Below are positions 22,442-31,395 of a DNA stretch of 64,000 bases, one piece after another; position 1 is the first letter of the stretch, and each line of letters opens with the position of its first letter. The translations under genes and the position numbers were made by a program. Source of the stretch: an uncultured Sulfuricurvum sp. (lineage in GTDB: Bacteria; Campylobacterota; Campylobacteria; Campylobacterales; Sulfurimonadaceae); NCBI GenBank assembly GCA_903844635.1, contig CAIMUF010000052.1:840-64839 (forward strand), read 5' to 3'. Under the pieces are notes generated by a model. That model worked only from the letters and a program-made list of their open reading frames with translations, ran no database searches and was not told the DNA's origin.

Positions 22442-23863
22442 ATGACCAATATTATTCTGTGTGGCGGAAGCGGTACACGCCTTTGGCCGATTAGTCGAAC
22501 CCTTATGCCCAAGCAATTTGTAAAACTTTTTGGTGACACCCCAGGGCAGTCTCTCTTGCAACGCAATTCACCTCCCAAATCTCTTTTTCAACTTACCGTA
22601 GAGCGTAATATTCCTCTTTGCAGCGAACAATTCATTGTCTCTAATGCCGAGCAGTATTTTTTAGCTTTGGATCAACTTGGCGAAATGAATGCGCAAAGTA
22701 ATCACTACCTTCTTGAGCCTGTTGGCAGAAATACGGCTCCGGCGATTGCATTGGCTTGTATGGCACTTGATCCCGAAGAGATCGTTCTTGTAACACCCTC
22801 CGATCATCTCATAAAAAATCAACAATCTTATGCCCAAGCAGTTGAACGCGCGAAAGAGCTGGCATCGCAAGATTATCTCGTAACCTTCGGAATCACTCCA
22901 GCATTTGCTGAAACCGGATTTGGCTATATCGAAGCAGACAAAGAGAATGGCGAAGAAGTTGTAAGTTTTAAAGAAAAACCTGATTTTAATACTGCAACCC
23001 AGTACCTCAATGCCGGAAATTATTATTGGAACAGCGGGATGTTTTGCTTTAAAGCCGGAGTATTTTTAGAAGAGTTACGTGAACTTTCACCGCAGGTGTT
23101 CGAAACCTGTGCAGTAGCTTTTAAAAACGCAACGACCAACGGCATGATCCGTATAGCACATGACGATATGCTTTATATTCCCGAAGACAGTATTGACTAT
23201 GCCGTGATGGAAAAAAGCAATCGCGTCAAAGTCGTAGTAGCCAGCGATATAGAGTGGAGCGACGTAGGGAGTTTCGATGCTCTCTATGAAGAGCTGCCAA
23301 AAGATGCCAACGGCAACACAGTATGCGATAAGCACATCAGTATCGATAGTAAAAACAATCTCGTTCTCTGTGAAGGGCGTAAAATTGCAACCATTGACGT
23401 CGAAGATTTGATCATTGTTGATACAGGTGATGCTTTGCTTGTTTCGAAAAAAGGCTCATCTCAAAAAGTTAAAAACGTGGTCGCAGAACTTAAAAATCGT
23501 AATACCGAGCTTCATAACATCCACCTCACCGCTCACCGTCCATGGGGAACGTATACGATTCTAGAAGACACTCCCGGATATAAGATCAAGAGGATCGTTG
23601 TGCAGCCAGGAAAGCGCTTAAGTTTACAAAAACACTTTCACCGCAGCGAGCATTGGATTGTCGTTAGCGGTACAGCGACAGTTACTGTCGGGGATCAAAC
23701 GCAAATCATCCGCCCCAATGAGTCCACCTATATCAAAATGGGTGAGATCCATCGTCTCGCCAATGATGGGAAAATTCCAGTAGTTCTTATCGAAGCACAA
23801 GTCGGAGAATATACAGGCGAAGATGATATCGTTCGAATTAGTGATGAGTACAACCGCGCATGA
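22442..23863 (+). CDS. manC: Mannose-1-phosphate guanylyltransferase/mannose-6-phosphate isomerase
   Basis: GGSGTRLWP, EPVGRNTAPAI, WSDVGS, RPWG and C-terminal cupin. Confidence 0.95.
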   Translation: MTNIILCGGSGTRLWPISRTLMPKQFVKLFGDTPGQSLLQRNSPPKSLFQLTVERNIPLCSEQFIVSNAEQYFLALDQLGEMNAQSNHYLLEPVGRNTAPAIALACMALDPEEIVLVTPSDHLIKNQQSYAQAVERAKELASQDYLVTFGITPAFAETGFGYIEADKENGEEVVSFKEKPDFNTATQYLNAGNYYWNSGMFCFKAGVFLEELRELSPQVFETCAVAFKNATTNGMIRIAHDDMLYIPEDSIDYAVMEKSNRVKVVVASDIEWSDVGSFDALYEELPKDANGNTVCDKHISIDSKNNLVLCEGRKIATIDVEDLIIVDTGDALLVSKKGSSQKVKNVVAELKNRNTELHNIHLTAHRPWGTYTILEDTPGYKIKRIVVQPGKRLSLQKHFHRSEHWIVVSGTATVTVGDQTQIIRPNESTYIKMGEIHRLANDGKIPVVLIEAQVGEYTGEDDIVRISDEYNRA

Positions 23864-24651
23864 ACCAATTAAAAGCTATTTGGGCGTATCGTTATTTTAT
23901 TATCAGCTCTATCAAAACGGAATTTCGAAGTCGTTTTGCACGTAGCAGTTTAGGCGGTGTCTGGATGGTATTACATCCGCTAGCACAAGTGGCTATTTAC
24001 GCCCTCGTACTCTCAGCCGTCCTTGCTGCCAAACTTCCCGGTATTGACAACCAGTATGCCTATGCTATTTATCTGATGGCTGGGACACTTGGTTGGTCAC
24101 TGTTTGCTGAGGTGTTTGGACGAAGCTTGGGAGTATTTGTTGATAATGGCAATTTACTCAAAAAAATGGCATTTCCAAAAATCGCACTCCCTCTCATCGT
24201 CACGGGCAGTGCATTGGTCAACAACCTTCTCCTCTTTGGAGCAGTATTGGTCGTTTTTGGGATTCTTGGGCACATGCCTACTCTTATGCTCTTGTGGCTG
24301 CCTGTTCTAATTGCTGTAACGCTCGCATTGGCACTCGGGCTAGGTTTAGCGTTAGGTATTATCAATGTTTTTGTGCGCGATATCGGTCAGATCGTCCCGA
24401 TCATTTTACAATTTTGGTTTTGGCTCACCCCTGTCGTGTATGTCTCTACGATGATTCCTGCAAAATATCATGCGCTATTGATGCTCAATCCCATGAGCGG
24501 TATCGTCATGGGGTATCAAAACATCCTTGTATACAACAAAGCCCCAGATGTAAGCACGCTTCTTTATCCGGCTACAATCGCCATTGTAGCACTGTCGCTT
24601 GCCCTCTTTATGTATTTTCGTGCGAATGAAGAAATGGCGGATGCGTTATGA
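23860..24651 (+). CDS. wzm: O-antigen ABC transporter permease Wzm
   Basis: FRSRFARSSLGGVW, RDIGQIVP, WLTPVVY, LNPM. Confidence 0.92.
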   Translation: MNQLKAIWAYRYFIISSIKTEFRSRFARSSLGGVWMVLHPLAQVAIYALVLSAVLAAKLPGIDNQYAYAIYLMAGTLGWSLFAEVFGRSLGVFVDNGNLLKKMAFPKIALPLIVTGSALVNNLLLFGAVLVVFGILGHMPTLMLLWLPVLIAVTLALALGLGLALGIINVFVRDIGQIVPIILQFWFWLTPVVYVSTMIPAKYHALLMLNPMSGIVMGYQNILVYNKAPDVSTLLYPATIAIVALSLALFMYFRANEEMADAL

Positions 24652-24652
24652 T

Positions 24653-25153
24653 AATTTTTAATTTTGAATGCTTAATGTTGAATCAAAACGTAAGAATGAG
24701 CAAGTAGCATGAAGCAAGAAAATATTATCTTAGATAAATCATTTGCTTTTGCAGTGAGAGTTGTAAAACTCTATAAATATTTGTGTGATGAAAAACAAGA
24801 GTATGTTTTATCCAAACAGTTGTTGAGAAGCGGCACCTCCATCGGAGCCAATATCAATGAAGCTCAAGCAGCGCAGAGTACGAACGATTTTATCACCAAA
24901 ATGAGTATCGCAAGCAAAGAAGCGAGAGAAAGCAGATACTGGATAGATCTTTTAATTCAGACAGATTTTCTTGATTCCAGTGAACAACACACTCAAACAT
25001 TGCGAGGCGATATTGATGAGCTTATCAAAATGTTAACATCCATCATTAAAACAACGCAAGAAAGAAATAAAAAATGAATTCAAAATTAAAGATTGACCAA
25101 CGGGAATGCCCTGGGGTTCAGAATTCAGAATTAAACATTCAAAATTCAAAATT
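24653..25153. mobile_element. Four-helix-bundle gene cassette bounded by 31-bp heptamer-based inverted repeats
   Basis: Left arm 24653-24683 vs right arm 25123-25153 match 27/31; flanking (T)GAT direct repeat; excision restores ATG ATT TCG CCT (MISPVLE) overlapping the wzm stop. Confidence 0.65.
24709..25077 (+). CDS. Four helix bundle protein (TIGR02436 / 23S IVS-protein / bAvd-like)
   Basis: DKSFAFAVRVVKLY, SKQLLRSGTSIGANINEA, KMSIASKEARESRYW. Confidence 0.9.
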   Translation: MKQENIILDKSFAFAVRVVKLYKYLCDEKQEYVLSKQLLRSGTSIGANINEAQAAQSTNDFITKMSIASKEARESRYWIDLLIQTDFLDSSEQHTQTLRGDIDELIKMLTSIIKTTQERNKK

Positions 25154-26378
25154 GATTTCGCCTGTCCTCGAAATCAGTAACATCGGCAAAGCCTATCGTA
25201 ACTACGGTAGTGAGCTATGGCGTATCCTCTCGTGGTTCGGACTGCGTTTTAAACCCGTTCATGAGACATGGACACTCCAAAATATCAGCTTTAACATCGC
25301 ACCGGGTGAAGCGATCGGTGTTGTTGGGCAAAACGGTGCAGGCAAAAGCACCTTGCTCAAAATCATTACAGGCACTCTCAAGCCAAGTACTGGCAGTGTA
25401 ACGGTGCACGGTAAAATCGCCGCAATCCTAGAGCTGGGGATGGGATTTCACCCCGACCTTACAGGGCGACAAAATGCCTACCATTCTGCAGGACTTATGG
25501 GCTATACAAGCGCACAAATCGATGCAGTAATCGATCAAATTGAAGCATTTGCAGAGGTCGGAGAGTACTTCGATCAGCCGGTACGTACTTATAGTAGTGG
25601 TATGCAGATGCGTGTAGCATTTGCAACCGTGACCGCCTATCGTCCAGAGATTCTAATTGTCGATGAAGCTATGTCTGTCGGGGATGCCTATTTCCAGCAC
25701 AAAAGCTTTGACCGTATCCGACAGTTCCAGAGCGCGGGAACAACTCTCTTGCTTGTATCTCACGATCGCGGTGCTATTCAGGCGATCTGTGATCGTGCTA
25801 TTTTATTAGAGCAAGGGAAAGTGATCCGAGACGGTGAGCCCGAAGAAGTGATGGATTTTTACAATGCTCTCATCGCGGACAAGGAAAACAGCAAAATTGA
25901 GCAAGTAACACTTGACAATGGAAGAGTCCAGACGATCTCCGGAACAGGCGAAGCCAAAGTCGAAGATATTGGACTCTACAATGACAAAGGCGAAAAAGTA
26001 GAGTTTGTCGGTGTTGGTGATCCAGTAGAGTTACGAGTGAAAGTGAAAATATATCAAGATATTCCATTGCTCGTATTAGGATACGGAATTAAAGATCGCC
26101 TTGGTCAGGTGATGTACGGAACGAATACATGGCTGATGAAGCAAGTATTAGAAGATTTGAAAGCAGGTAATTTGTATAACTTTATAATTACATTTCCCAT
26201 CAATATTGGGGTTGGTAATTATTCAATTCAAACTGCTCTGCATAAACACGATACCCATTTATCTGTCAATTATGAATGGAAAGACTTAGCATTAGTTTTC
26301 AATGTTGTTAATATTGACAAGACTGCTTTTGTTGGATCAACATGGCACGAACCAAAAATAGAAGTTAAACTAATATGA
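25074..26378 (+). CDS. wzt: O-antigen ABC transporter ATPase Wzt with C-terminal carbohydrate-binding domain
   Basis: GQNGAGKST, YSSGMQMR, ILIVDE, C-terminal beta-sandwich; first 26-27 aa derive from the repeat arm. Confidence 0.93.
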   Translation: MNSKLKIDQRECPGVQNSELNIQNSKLISPVLEISNIGKAYRNYGSELWRILSWFGLRFKPVHETWTLQNISFNIAPGEAIGVVGQNGAGKSTLLKIITGTLKPSTGSVTVHGKIAAILELGMGFHPDLTGRQNAYHSAGLMGYTSAQIDAVIDQIEAFAEVGEYFDQPVRTYSSGMQMRVAFATVTAYRPEILIVDEAMSVGDAYFQHKSFDRIRQFQSAGTTLLLVSHDRGAIQAICDRAILLEQGKVIRDGEPEEVMDFYNALIADKENSKIEQVTLDNGRVQTISGTGEAKVEDIGLYNDKGEKVEFVGVGDPVELRVKVKIYQDIPLLVLGYGIKDRLGQVMYGTNTWLMKQVLEDLKAGNLYNFIITFPINIGVGNYSIQTALHKHDTHLSVNYEWKDLALVFNVVNIDKTAFVGSTWHEPKIEVKLI

Positions 26379-27682
26379 TACATAACAATTTTTACCGAGC
26401 TTTTGAAGAGAAATATTATGCTCCTCGGACAGTAATTAAAGAACTTCGAAAGCAATATTTATCCTTTGTTGAACAACTCATCCAGCATTATCCATCTGGT
26501 CAAACATATGATTTAGGTTGTGGTCGTGGTGAATGGCTTGAATTAATGCAGGAGCTTCAATTAACCCCCTATGGTGTTGATCTTGATGATGGCATGCTAC
26601 AAGGATGCAGAGACTTAGGATTGCCGGCTGAAAAAGGTGATGCGGTATCGTATCTTAAAACACTTGAATCGGAAAGTCACTTAGTGATTAGTGCATTTCA
26701 TGTTGTCGAACATATTTCATTTAGTGATTTGCAAGAAGTTGTCCAAGAAGCATTACGGGTTTTAAAGCCAGGCGGCTTGCTCATCATGGAAACACCTAAT
26801 CCTGAAAATATCAAGGTAGCCACGGCTAATTTTTATTTAGACCCGACACATGTTCGACCTATTCCGTCCCAATTACTCTCTTTTTTAACAGAACATTACG
26901 GTTTTGAACGGACAAAGATTCTCCGTCTTCAGGAATCACAAGAAGTACATCATACACTATCCATCACTCTTTCGCAGGTCATTAGTGGTGTGAGCCCAGA
27001 CTATGCAGTCATTGCCCAAAAACAAGCTAGTGGTGAGATCATGTCAAGCTTTAATGAGTTGTTTGATAAAGAATATGGTTTATCTTTAGAAATGTTAGCA
27101 GATAAATTTGAAAATCGTTTATTAAAAATCGAAACCCAAACTAATGAAGCAAACTCGAAAGCTGATAAAGCATACGCACAGGCTAGTGAAGCAAGCGTAC
27201 AAGCCAATGAAGCAAATTCTAGGGCAACCAAAGCAGAACAAAGTGCAAATAATGCATGGCAACATTATCACATGATCGCAAATAGTACTTCTTGGAAGAT
27301 GACCAAGTCATTGCGATTGGCAGGTAAATTTACAAGATGGTTAGTCTATGGCTCTTATCATTGGCTCACATTTTCACCGACCAGCAGACCGCGTAGAAGC
27401 ATTAAAAATTTAGTATTAAAAATGAAAAATTATATTAATTCAAACCCAAAATTAAAAATGAAAATTATTAGTATCTTAAATCGTTTTCCAAAACTGAAAG
27501 CTAGGCTTAAAAGAGTTAGTCAAGACAACTATTTTCTATCAGACAATTCAAAATTGACCGCATGGAATGCCCTTGGGTGCAAAAGTCAAAATTTAGAATT
27601 ATCGCACTTGTCTCCAGAAGCCAAAAAAATATACAATGATTTGAAATATGCGATAGAGCAAAAGCAAAAGGCATCAAAATGA
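26375..27682 (+). CDS. SAM-dependent methyltransferase with coiled coil (WbdD-like O-antigen terminator)
   Basis: DLGCGRGEWL, FHVVEH, ETPNPEN, LDPTH; Ala/Gln-rich coiled segment; follows wzt. Confidence 0.8.
   Translation: MIHNNFYRAFEEKYYAPRTVIKELRKQYLSFVEQLIQHYPSGQTYDLGCGRGEWLELMQELQLTPYGVDLDDGMLQGCRDLGLPAEKGDAVSYLKTLESESHLVISAFHVVEHISFSDLQEVVQEALRVLKPGGLLIMETPNPENIKVATANFYLDPTHVRPIPSQLLSFLTEHYGFERTKILRLQESQEVHHTLSITLSQVISGVSPDYAVIAQKQASGEIMSSFNELFDKEYGLSLEMLADKFENRLLKIETQTNEANSKADKAYAQASEASVQANEANSRATKAEQSANNAWQHYHMIANSTSWKMTKSLRLAGKFTRWLVYGSYHWLTFSPTSRPRRSIKNLVLKMKNYINSNPKLKMKIISILNRFPKLKARLKRVSQDNYFLSDNSKLTAWNALGCKSQNLELSHLSPEAKKIYNDLKYAIEQKQKASK
27541..27603 (+). repeat. Solo heptamer-arm element inserted in-frame near the methyltransferase C-terminus
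   Basis: Shares ATTGACC-N4-GGAATGCCCT-N-GGGT and heptads with 25078-25152; TATC direct repeats 63 bp apart. Confidence 0.7.
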
Positions 27683-30600
27683 GAATCGTCATAGACCTTC
27701 AAGGAGCCCAAACTGAAAGTCGCTTTAGAGGAATTGGTAGATATTCACTCTCACTGGCTAAAGCGATAATAAGAAATGCAGGCGATCATGAGATATGGCT
27801 GGTTCTTAATGGTGCATTTCCTGAAAGTGTTTTAGCATTTAGAGAAGAGTTTGAAGGGATGGTGTCTCAAGGGCGAATTAGAGTTTTTCAAGCTCCCCTT
27901 CCCGTAGCTGAACACGATCCTGCAAACTCAAACAGAGCAAGAGTCGCAGAGCTGATACGAGAGTATTTTATGGAGCAGCTCAACCCTGATGTTGTCCTAG
28001 TAATGAGTCTTTTTGAGGGGTATCTCGATGATGCAGTAACATCAGTAAGTCGATTTACATCGAGCTACAAAACAGCGGTAATACTGTATGATCTCATACC
28101 TTATATAGATGAAGAGAGATATTTACCCTCCAGCACGCAAAAAGAGTACTATCATAAAAAAATCAACTCACTCCAAAAAGCAGATATCCTTTTAGCTATC
28201 TCAGAGGCTTCTAAAATAGAGTGTGAGAATGTACTTCACATACCATCCGAAAAAGTTACGAACATTTCTACAGCAGTCGATGAGACCTTTGAGCCAAAAG
28301 AACTCTCAGCAGATGAAAAAAAGACCCTTTTTGCCAAATACGACATCACCAGAAAGATGGTGATGTACGCTCCAGGCGGTTTTGATATTCGTAAAAACTT
28401 TGAAAATCTTATCGTTGCTTATAGCGAACTACCCCAACTTTTACGAGACGATCATCAGCTAGTCATTGTTAGTAAGGTTCAAGAGGGCGATAAACTTCAC
28501 TTAGAAAATATCGCCAAAAATACAAGACTAAAAAAAGACGAACTCATCATCACAGGTTATGTGAGCGATGAAGAACTCATGGCGTTTTACAGCACATGTA
28601 CACTTTTTGTATTTGCTTCGCTTCATGAAGGGTTTGGATTGCCTACACTTGAAGCGATGGCTTGCGGGGCTGCGGTGATAGGCTCAAATACCACAAGCGT
28701 ACCTGAAGTAATAGGATATGAAAAAGCTCTTTTTGATCCGAAATCAGTGCATTCTATTACCGATAAAATTCAAGAAGTGCTCGAAAATAAACAATTTTTG
28801 AAAGAGCTTCAATCACATTCCTTGCAGCAATGTAAAAAGTTCTCATGGGACGAGAGTGCAAAAAGAGCAATAGCTTCAATGGTTAATCTGCAAACATCGG
28901 ACAAAACTACTTATAAAGACTCTACAAAAAGAAAACTTGCGTATTTCTCTCCACTTCCTCCACAACGAAGCGGCATTAGTGACTATAGCAAAGAGTTGTT
29001 ACCATACTTAAATGCTTATTATGACATTACATTGATCGTAAATAGCGATGCATGTGAGAATATTTTTAATGAGATGGAATTTGAGAAAAAAAATGTTGCT
29101 TGGTTTGAAAATAATATAAAGAGTTTTGACAGAATTTTATACCATATAGGGAATAACCCTTTTCATACACACATGCTAGATGTACTGAAGCAACATTCTG
29201 GGGTGGCAATGCTTCATGATTTCTTTTTGAGCAGTTTGTATGCTTACGAAGAGACTGTATTAGGACAGCAGGATTTTTGGAAAAAAGCTATTTTTGAATC
29301 TCACGGTTTTGCTGCTCTTAAAGATAGATGTATTTCATATGGTGAAGAAAATGCAAAGCAAAAATATCCTGCCAATATTGAGGTCATGCAGAATGCCAGA
29401 GGTTTGATTTTTCATTCGAATTATTCAAGACATTTGTTGAATCAATGGTATGGTGAGCACAATCAAGTCCGAATGTTTCAGGTACCTTTCTTGAAATATA
29501 TGCCAAATGGTTATGATAAACAAGAAATACGAAAATTAATGAGATACGATAAAAGTGATTTCATAGTGTGTTCATTCGGTTATTTAGATTCCACTAAACT
29601 AAATCATAAGCTTTTGGAAGCCTGGAGAACGTCGAAGCTTTCATCATTAGGAAACTGCAAACTCATTTTTGTTGGGGAAAATAATGATGGTGATTATGGA
29701 CAACAAATTTTAAAAACCATCCAAAAGAGTAAAAATATTATTATCACGGGATGGACGGACAGTGATACATACGCAAACTATTTAAAAATAGCTGATGCAG
29801 GGGTACAATTGCGTACTATGTCCAGAGGTGAAACATCGGCAGCTGTCCATGATTGTATGGCTTATGCTTTGGCAACCATTGTTAATGCAAATGGCTCTTT
29901 TGCTGACATCCCAAAAGATTCGGTGTATATGATAGAAGATGAATTTGAAATCAAAACTCTGGTTGAAGCCCTTGAAAAACTTTATGATAATGAAAACTTT
30001 CGGAAAGAGTTATCTCAAAAAGCTGCAAAAACTATCAAAGAGCAACATTCTCCAGAAGTCTGTGCAAAAATGTATTTTGAAGCAATAGAAGCTTCTTATC
30101 AAAAACACCCCGTAAATGATTTGATCTCAAGCATAGTTGATCTAAAAGAATTTCGCTCTATTGAAAATGATGAAACTAAGTTGTTACATATTTCTAAAGC
30201 AATATCGCGCACTGTAGAAGTCCCATGTAGACAAAAACAAATACTTGTAGATGTATCGGCTATTTGCAGAAACGATTTGAAAACAGGTATCGAAAGGGTT
30301 GTCAAAGCTCAGCTATTGGAATTAATAAAAAATCAACCTGCAGGATACCGAGTAGAACCAATATATCTGGCATATGAAAATGGACAATGGGTCTATAGGT
30401 ATGCCAGAGATTATGCTTTATCGCTTTTAGAAATACAAAATGTACAGATGCAAAATGAGTTAATAGATATGCACAACGGTGATGTATATTATTGTGCAGA
30501 TTTTTTTAGGGATGGCATTGCCCAAGCTATAAAACAGGGATTGTTTGCTGAGATGAAGATGCAAGGTATTCAGCTGAACTTTGCAGTTTATGACATTTTA

Positions 30601-31395
30601 CCAATCCTGCATCCGGAGTTTTTTCCAATAGGAACAAGTAAGCCTCACCATGTTTGGCTCGAAGCAATAGCATCTGTTTCTGCTAATCTGATATGTATTT
30701 CAAAATCTGTAGCGGATGAAGTAAAAAATATATTGAAAGAGCCTAAGCTCAAAATATCTTATAATCATTTGGGTGCAGATATAGAAAGTTCAATTCCATC
30801 AGCTGGACTACCCGATGATGTACAAACCTCGCTTGTTACGCTTAGATCAAAACCGACTTTTTTGTTGGTAGGGACAATTGAACCGCGAAAAGGACATTTA
30901 CAAGTGTTGGCAGCTTTTGAAAAACTGTGGAGCGAGGGTTGTGATCTAAACCTCGTCATCGTTGGAAATGAGGGTTGGAAACTTTTGCTTGAGAATGAAC
31001 GAAGAACAATTCCTCAAATAGTTTCAAAAATGAATGCTTTAAAAAGCGAGGCTAAATTCTTTTGGCTTGAAGGCATCAGCGATGAGTACTTAGAAAAAGT
31101 GTATGAAGCCTCTACTTGCCTTATCGCCGCCAGCGAAGGGGAAGGGTTTGGATTGCCGCTTATTGAGGCAGCTCAGCATAAATTGCCAATCATTGCAAGG
31201 GATATCCCCGTATTTCGTGAAGTGGCTGGTAAATATGCTTATTATTTTGAAAATAGTAACGATTCCTCTGTTTTAGCAAATGTTGTCATCTCTTGGCTTG
31301 AACTTTATAAAGATGATCGTCATCCAAAATCAGATGCTATGCCGTGGTTGACGTGGGAAGAGAGTGCAAAACAGTTATTGGGTTGTATAAAATGA
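27679..31395 (+). CDS. Multi-domain GT4 glycosyltransferase (WbdA-like polymerase)
   Basis: 1238 aa; three GT-B modules with EGFGLP (twice) and SRGETSAA motifs. Confidence 0.85.
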   Translation: MRIVIDLQGAQTESRFRGIGRYSLSLAKAIIRNAGDHEIWLVLNGAFPESVLAFREEFEGMVSQGRIRVFQAPLPVAEHDPANSNRARVAELIREYFMEQLNPDVVLVMSLFEGYLDDAVTSVSRFTSSYKTAVILYDLIPYIDEERYLPSSTQKEYYHKKINSLQKADILLAISEASKIECENVLHIPSEKVTNISTAVDETFEPKELSADEKKTLFAKYDITRKMVMYAPGGFDIRKNFENLIVAYSELPQLLRDDHQLVIVSKVQEGDKLHLENIAKNTRLKKDELIITGYVSDEELMAFYSTCTLFVFASLHEGFGLPTLEAMACGAAVIGSNTTSVPEVIGYEKALFDPKSVHSITDKIQEVLENKQFLKELQSHSLQQCKKFSWDESAKRAIASMVNLQTSDKTTYKDSTKRKLAYFSPLPPQRSGISDYSKELLPYLNAYYDITLIVNSDACENIFNEMEFEKKNVAWFENNIKSFDRILYHIGNNPFHTHMLDVLKQHSGVAMLHDFFLSSLYAYEETVLGQQDFWKKAIFESHGFAALKDRCISYGEENAKQKYPANIEVMQNARGLIFHSNYSRHLLNQWYGEHNQVRMFQVPFLKYMPNGYDKQEIRKLMRYDKSDFIVCSFGYLDSTKLNHKLLEAWRTSKLSSLGNCKLIFVGENNDGDYGQQILKTIQKSKNIIITGWTDSDTYANYLKIADAGVQLRTMSRGETSAAVHDCMAYALATIVNANGSFADIPKDSVYMIEDEFEIKTLVEALEKLYDNENFRKELSQKAAKTIKEQHSPEVCAKMYFEAIEASYQKHPVNDLISSIVDLKEFRSIENDETKLLHISKAISRTVEVPCRQKQILVDVSAICRNDLKTGIERVVKAQLLELIKNQPAGYRVEPIYLAYENGQWVYRYARDYALSLLEIQNVQMQNELIDMHNGDVYYCADFFRDGIAQAIKQGLFAEMKMQGIQLNFAVYDILPILHPEFFPIGTSKPHHVWLEAIASVSANLICISKSVADEVKNILKEPKLKISYNHLGADIESSIPSAGLPDDVQTSLVTLRSKPTFLLVGTIEPRKGHLQVLAAFEKLWSEGCDLNLVIVGNEGWKLLLENERRTIPQIVSKMNALKSEAKFFWLEGISDEYLEKVYEASTCLIAASEGEGFGLPLIEAAQHKLPIIARDIPVFREVAGKYAYYFENSNDSSVLANVVISWLELYKDDRHPKSDAMPWLTWEESAKQLLGCIK

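Follow-up and report, generated by a model that had tools for sequence, protein, structure and literature searches.

The odd segment in the linker of the O-antigen methyltransferase encoded in the window (the whole 64,000-nucleotide stretch of DNA from an uncultured Sulfuricurvum sp. analyzed here) is probably a composite of two layers of selfish repeats, translated as a floppy linker within a working enzyme. The first layer would be a five-unit array of AATTCAA-type heptads lodged between the last two helices of the protein, a repeat type known from the arms of the four-helix-bundle cassettes of Campylobacterota. The second would be a 24-nt stem-loop element that entered one of these heptads exactly at T^CA, without duplication. 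The genes concerned are arranged as follows:

22442-23863: manC (open reading frame and Pfam).
23860-24651: wzm (open reading frame and Pfam).
24709-25077, plus strand: four-helix-bundle gene, PF05635 (23S_rRNA_IVP; Pfam E = 8e-28), lying outside the insert of the methyltransferase site.
25074-26378: wzt, ATG at 25074 (open reading frame and Pfam).
26375-27682, plus strand: O-antigen chain-terminating SAM methyltransferase with a coiled coil, 435 aa (open reading frame; Pfam Methyltransf_23/11/25 and Alanine_zipper).
27679-31395: large glycosyltransferase, the start of which is overlapped by the methyltransferase stop (open reading frame and Pfam).

The methyltransferase (26375-27682) has a WbdD-like layout and 6665 homologues, several of which are named 'O-antigen chain-terminating methyltransferase' at their source. 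Across 120 of its relatives, the linker between FPxLKxRLKRxG and LSPxAKxIY is hypervariable in both length and sequence. The AlphaFold model of the protein (21 orthologues) has a pLDDT <50 for residues 382-408, a predicted disordered linker flanked by helices at 372-382 and 414-434, and the odd segment corresponds to residues 390-410. At the DNA level, this site can be decomposed into three parts:

27545-27555, plus strand: left part of the heptad array, AATTCAA followed by AATT, the first four bases of heptad 2 (direct reading; the array of L084-L088 is in the same phase).
27556-27579, plus strand: the 24-nt mini-element GACCGCATGGAATGCCCTTGGGTG, inserted at AATT^CAA and coding, with portions of the codons on either side, for TAWNALGC (24-nt gap in five orthologues; insert shared by the metagenome locus L081; fit to the family pattern given below).
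27580-27603, plus strand: right part of the array, comprising the last three bases of heptad 2 (CAA) followed by AAGTCAA, AATTTAG and AATTATC (direct reading and orthologue alignment).

The evidence for two layers comes from the comparison of orthologues. In five orthologous loci, five to six heptads of the AATTCAA type share the phase of the window array, and a clean 24-nt gap faces the core of the window and of L081. When 27556-27579 is removed, the site reads AATTCAA AATTCAA AAGTCAA AATTTAG AATTATC and, as 7 does not divide 24, the restoration of the heptad phase is informative. The insert separates T from CA within one heptad and is not accompanied by a target duplication. At the protein level, P0002, P0005, P0006, P0007, P0009 and P0015 present at the same place the segment NSK[LFY]-KIQNLELSHL or near variants of it, without the core, and P0023 has a weaker and more divergent heptad-coded segment at the same linker site. 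The extra 8 aa TAWNALG[CY] are found, in the protein alignment of close orthologues, in the window protein and P0003 only. Since the segment exists without the core in close orthologues and the extra 8 aa are restricted to these two proteins, the site is best described as an older heptad array with a nested 24-nt insert, and protein and DNA alignments together display three states of the linker: without heptads, with heptads alone, and with both heptads and the 24 nt.

A second copy of the same core lies upstream, in the arm of the four-helix-bundle cassette:

25077-25156, plus strand: right heptad arm of the cassette, made of AATTCAA, AATTCAG, AATTAAA and CATTCAA units and translated in frame with the wzt start codon (ATG at 25074).
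25095-25118, plus strand: second 24-nt copy, GACCAACGGGAATGCCCTGGGGTT, between GATT and CAG, read within the Wzt N-terminus in another frame (24-nt gap in L086).

An earlier note on this DNA, made from its letters alone, had pointed out the resemblance between the two places, and its description holds. The motif ATTGACC-N4-GGAATGCCCT is read directly at 25092-25112 and 27553-27573, that is, two matches in the window vs 0.08 expected, a number reached by none of 100 shuffles. A recount of the identity between 25092-25118 and 27553-27579 again gave 21/27, and heptads stand on both sides of the core at 27553 as they do in the cassette arm (TRF array 25117-25153). The genome of the window (G000; 2.67 Mb, 39.8% GC) contains exactly two copies of the motif, both within AATTCAA-type heptad runs, and no other AATTCAA-type arrays or further copies of the element; a tblastn search of the same genome found one PF05635 gene only. 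The locus L086 has the same wzm-four-helix-bundle-wzt-methyltransferase order, with a cassette ~89% identical to that of the window, and lacks exactly 24 nt at both sites, the methyltransferase linker and the right arm of the cassette. Once the 24-nt insert is discounted, each cassette arm counts eight heptads in the window and in L086. The ends of 25095-25118 were placed by analogy with the exact pairs described below, the neighbouring heptad having diverged in the window vs L086. The peptides produced by the two copies, DQRECPGV in the arm and TAWNALGC in the methyltransferase, come from different frames, so that the conservation is at the nucleotide level. The two copies are independent acquisitions, and 6/27 positions differ between them. 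In many cassettes (L001-L040, and the window at 25074-25156), the right-arm heptads form an in-frame N-terminal extension of the next gene, M-[E/D]-N-N-S-K-L/F-N-I-Q-N-S.., whose new start codon often overlaps or shortly follows the stop of the cassette gene.

These copies are members of a dispersed family of very small inserts which is apparently undescribed so far. Its pattern is 5'-G(A/C)CC, 4-14 variable nt, G(G/A)AAT(G/A)CCCT(T/G)GGG(G)T(G/T/A)-3', and 47 distinct copies of 24-34 nt were collected from Campylobacterales and SUP05-type Gammaproteobacteria. Their lengths are mostly 24 nt (9 copies), 25 (19), 26 (5) or 27 (5), with additional variants of 33-34 nt, and they have no coding capacity. 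The search pattern GRAATRCCCTKGGGK gave ~50 matches in 17/301 Campylobacterales genomes vs 3 for the reversed control, with a maximum of 18 copies in one genome of a Sulfurovum-like genus (L104 = L014, a Lamellibrachia symbiont), and nine real copies were found in 8/122 genomes of the SUP05-type order to which L020 belongs. Among 301 genomes of Cyanobacteriota, the pattern had 31 matches vs 17 for the control, and the family architecture was present in 0/20 of the matches whose context was examined. A phage vector was also considered and rejected, one of the nine matches on viral contigs being a family member. The metagenomes yielded further copies: that of L173 lies in a heptamer hairpin devoid of genes, that of L175 in a further heptad array and that of L177 inside a GTAG-tagged hairpin loop.

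The boundaries of the element are sharply defined. The base preceding it is T in 47/47 copies and the next two bases after it are CA in 30/47. Clean filled/empty pairs amount to three in total. Two of them have near-identical flanks. In L001, the 24 nt are present in a fragment duplicating the 5' part of an ABC ATPase gene and missing from the intact copy of the gene, behind the cassette; in L020 vs L015, 27 nt are present in one and absent from the other between identical flanks of 43 and 60 bases. In these two pairs the ends cannot slide. A G follows the T at the start, a G precedes the CA at the end, and duplication is zero; each filled/empty pair taken alone fits either a gain or a precise loss. 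In the sequences compared, the element is an all-or-none block with fixed ends, a fixed target base and a strong preference for heptads and hairpin loops. Upstream of the cassette of L001, at 600-860 and 1874-2039, partial AATTCAAAATT motifs form a trail, accompanied by a truncated second copy of the start of the ABC ATPase gene; these look like the scars of repeated rearrangement.

The ends of the element are predicted to pair with each other in a closing stem of 3-4 bp, (A/C)CC with GG(T/G). Position 2 of box 1 covaries with the base that follows GGG (A matched by T in 7/7 copies, C by G in 36/40; Fisher 5e-6, 47 copies), this covariation being essentially that of one stem position, which may reflect only a few lineages. 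The variable region comprises either 4-6 nt or 12-13 nt, in the latter case with an inner 2-bp stem covarying as AC/GT, GC/GC and CC/GG. When 4 nt long, it differs between copies, the remainder of the element being conserved across genera. Folded singly, the window copies show no gain in stability over shuffled sequence (z = +0.5 to -0.4). Several functional candidates were set aside: a known RNA family (Rfam E-value scan of 20 loci bearing copies, with no relevant result), a promoter or terminator made by the insert (no such site at either core), and a hammerhead-like reading of the CUGA..GAAA variants (core positions misfit by eye, and no Rfam match).

The sequences hosting the element are diverse, with heptad arrays of at least four unit types as well as REP-like hairpin loops. 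The 27-nt subfamily alone resides in three unrelated heptad types, CCAATCA, ACGAATT and CATTAAG; the 24-nt type is also found in a GTAG-hairpin loop, and the element occupies in addition the loop of a GGTGCGTAAT^CACGCACC hairpin which exists in an empty form too. In Sulfurovum-like genomes (G293, G156; L101, L112, L116, L120, L123, L124, L127, L130), the element constitutes the loop of (GTAG)ATTCCGGA-T[element]CA-(A/G)GTCCGGAAT-GAC, and the stems of these GTAG-tagged hairpins vary in a compensatory manner (CCGGA/TCCGG, CTGAA/TTCAG, CCTGAA/TTCAGG). A second family of host hairpins with compensatory stems is GTG(G/A)GNNT-[element]-AAA-NNCTC(C/A)CACTTCC (L110, L112, L114, L122, L127, L137), the L137 copy being on a viral contig. 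In L173, at 2140-2300, AATTTTG units face CAAAATT units, with no four-helix-bundle gene and with the 24-nt element in the right half; thus, gene-free heptamer hairpins exist.

Inside genes, the element is enriched for lengths divisible by three. Copies located in open reading frames of at least 150 aa have a length multiple of three in 9/12 cases vs 6/34 elsewhere, and the commonest length outside genes is 25. In one of the three frames, the left junction of the A-type insert produces a TGA, and the coding copies seen use the other two. Another Sulfuricurvum MAG (L049, 285-345) presents an RmlB (dTDP-glucose 4,6-dehydratase) with five CAAAATT heptads and the 24-nt element in frame, forming a surface loop, ..YPISQNSKLTEGNALGCKIQNSKLSSYK.. 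(peptide SQNSKLTEGNALGCKIQNSKLS), and further in-frame copies are found in long open reading frames of Sulfurovum-like genomes. Selection would leave in genes only the stop-free inserts of 3n length that fall in disordered protein loops.

As to its mechanism, the movement of the element, present or past, would be a site-specific reaction of cutting and joining on DNA that is single-stranded or folded as a hairpin, catalyzed by an enzyme acting in trans, and heptad arrays would be hot targets because the T^CA site recurs in them. We hold it possible, and only tentatively so, that this 24-27-nt 'nano-element' is truly mobile, entering T^CA of heptad arrays and hairpin loops with base precision and no duplication, and crossing between Campylobacterota and Gammaproteobacteria; it would then be one case of a cross-phylum process that places mini-hairpins in heptamer arrays within genes and in the arms of four-helix-bundle cassettes, with the help of an enzyme not yet recognised. 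Our best guess for the mover, a doubtful one, is an enzyme of the Y1/HUH type, as for IS200/IS605 and REP/RAYT. PF01797 (Y1 transposase) had no match in G000 and occurs in half of all Campylobacterales. With two copies and no Y1 transposase gene in G000, both copies are probably inert relics, presumably devoid of host function. A Y1/RAYT link was examined in G293, where two Y1 genes lie ~3 kb from copies of the element, and rejected, as these genes are bracketed by a different inverted repeat. These Y1-like genes of G293 (256-258 aa; L119 2870-2910 and 3725-3750; L120 6440-6530) are bracketed by inverted TATAGGGGTC(A/G)GGTGA(T/C)AA.. and form a separate REP/RAYT-like pair.

Other explanations were confronted with these data. 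A rather improbable one dispenses with dedicated machinery, the 24-nt block being spread and lost through homologous recombination or gene conversion between heptad arrays. It would account for the fact that the four 24-nt A-type copies residing in AATTCAA arrays share the flanks AATT|..|CAAAA, and the O-antigen locus is visibly recombinogenic. However, the 27-nt subfamily keeps the same internal sequence in the unrelated units CCAATCA, ACGAATT and CATTAAG, which argues against a homology-driven spread between arrays, and other members sit in heptad-free hairpin loops (L102, L103, L177). The constant joining at the same heptad base, and a 4-nt variable region that changes among copies while the rest is conserved, also speak against it.

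We give little probability to the explanation proposed by the earlier note, namely that the 63 bp represent a solo right arm remaining after the excision of a four-helix-bundle cassette, or a non-autonomous derivative of it, with TATC as target duplication. TATC is indeed present at 27537-27540 and 27600-27603, and the removal of 63 bp is frame-neutral, deleting the peptide DNSKLTAWNALGCKSQNLELS, residues 390-410 of the 435-aa reading frame. The heptad type and the heptad-core-heptad layout equal those of the cassette right arm, right arms are open in frame and translated in many loci, and the AATTCAAAATT trail and duplicated gene start beside the cassette of L001 indicate that cassette-linked scars exist. 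On the other hand, the orthologues keep the left TATCA and have no right-hand counterpart, so the TATC pair is not a target duplication. The 63 bp are not a single unit either: the actual insertion has its boundaries elsewhere and the site is made of two nested layers. The note had predicted a 21-aa gap in orthologous methyltransferases, and 108/120 relatives do have an unrelated linker there, but six close orthologues have an alignable heptad-coded segment, in part the outcome that the note had named as refuting, and core-free heptads are common to the orthologues at the cassette-free loci L084, L085, L087 and L088. That a four-helix-bundle gene formerly stood at the site finds no echo in the data, with no left arm, no cassette-interrupted orthologue among 80 cassette loci, and no split, free-standing methyltransferase tail open reading frame in a search of limited sensitivity. 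The core is a separate 24-nt event, and the same element occurs far from cassettes, in REP-like hairpin loops and other heptad types. What stands of the earlier reading is extra DNA of the cassette-arm type, related to a repeat family and tolerated in frame; the cassette excision footprint does not. Finally, it is very improbable that the host keeps the block as a functional module, be it an RNA structure signalling, for instance, processing or translation pausing in O-antigen operons, or a peptide of use to the proteins: conservation outside the variable region is strong across genera, even in two reading frames, and structured variants covary, but the peptides TAWNALGC and DQRECPGV are unrelated, the nearest syntenic locus has the same genes without the block, neither an Rfam family nor a promoter- or terminator-like site was found, and the contexts (open reading frames, intergenic hairpins, either strand relative to genes) have nothing in common.

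The preferred reading, a heptad array with a nested mini-element, has parallels in several known systems. To our knowledge, heptamer arrays combined with very small nested repeats have been described in print for cyanobacteria only and are among the least understood bacterial repeats. The small dispersed repeats SDR1-8, reportedly described by Elhai et al. in 2008, are said to be nested in the tandem heptamer (STRR) arrays of Nostocaceae cyanobacteria; they reportedly measure 21-27 nt, form a small hairpin with compensatory changes, show insertion polymorphism, encode no protein and are limited to a cyanobacterial subgroup. The SDRs are the closest analogue of the window family, which is likewise ~21-27 nt long, noncoding and nested in heptamers or other repeats, with insertion polymorphism, and which may also form a small hairpin with compensatory changes. 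Our family differs by its sequence (it is set apart from SDR1-8 by their description and by the Cyanobacteriota pattern search), by its presence in Campylobacterales and SUP05-type Gammaproteobacteria, by its documented T^CA target without duplication, and by its in-frame residence in genes and cassette arms. Single-strand elements of the IS200/IS605 family and their miniatures generate no target duplication, recognize a short specific adjacent sequence and depend on hairpins; they require two subterminal hairpins, and their length is 100 nt or more. The window family similarly joins exactly at T^..^CA without duplication, but is 24 nt long in the window and has no such enzyme linked to it.

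GTAG-tagged REPs, which have their RAYT (Y1) transposases, are sometimes located inside genes, and some carry alternative loop modules ending in GC (Di Nocera et al. 2013, PMC3733652). They are defined by a stem of 6-13 bp with GTAG at its 5' foot and by a cognate Y1 gene flanked by repeats (PMC3733652). The window element resembles them as a dispersed sequence predicted to form a short stem-loop, sometimes translated in frame and likely acting as single-stranded DNA or RNA, and, when it forms the loop of the Sulfurovum-like GTAG hairpins, it recalls the GTAG-3 and GTAG-14 loop modules (PMC3733652). In contrast to GTAG REPs, the window copies stand alone inside heptads, start with GACC-GCAT.. 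and GACC-AACG.., and have a stem of 3-4 bp, no terminal GTAG and no flanking RAYT; within the element, GTAG appears in the internal variable segment only (8/47 copies). The Rickettsia palindromic elements (RPE) are selfish palindromes residing in frame in functional genes, to which they add surface loops (PMC3733652). They thus share with the window element an in-frame insertion that leaves the gene functional, but are ~100-150 bp long, restricted to Rickettsia and devoid of heptad nesting. The 23S rRNA IVS of Coxiella has an S23p (PF05635) open reading frame and heptamer-containing stems (PMC4990558). The heptads of the methyltransferase site are of the cassette type, in right-arm and stop-free orientation; S23p IVS and cassettes share this heptad type and the second window copy sits in such a cassette arm, whereas the methyltransferase site lacks both a PF05635 gene and an inverted partner arm and shows no sign of RNase III-type excision.

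The family offers exact ends, a target resolved to one base, three filled/empty pairs and genomes with up to 18 copies. If the nano-element is truly mobile, it would rank among the smallest mobile DNAs known, with a defined experimental target. The heptad arms of four-helix-bundle cassettes appear here as landing pads for a second, unrelated parasite, and genes for surface polysaccharides are seen acquiring translated junk loops. For annotation, 21 odd residues of the methyltransferase are to be placed outside the ancestral sequence of the enzyme.

The two copies also seem to differ in the background on which they reached the window:

27434-28270, plus strand: recombination segment carrying the methyltransferase-site insert, 95-100% identical to the metagenome locus L081, including the start of the glycosyltransferase (sliding-window identity).

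By the same sliding-window measure, identity to L086 is at least 93% over the 5' part of the methyltransferase gene, and the O-antigen locus at 26371-28270 is, from these identity profiles, a recombination mosaic. As the segment 27434-28270 matches L081, which bears the insert itself, the methyltransferase copy came with an L081-like allele; the copy in the cassette arm arose or was kept on an L086-like background. Farther upstream in the same gene, a tandem repeat with a period of 21 nt and 3.5 copies (window 27143-27216) codes for the alanine-zipper coiled coil, at which the orthologues vary by 7-aa blocks (alignment columns 260-300), a block variation which we take to fit the variable 'molecular ruler' of the WbdD type.
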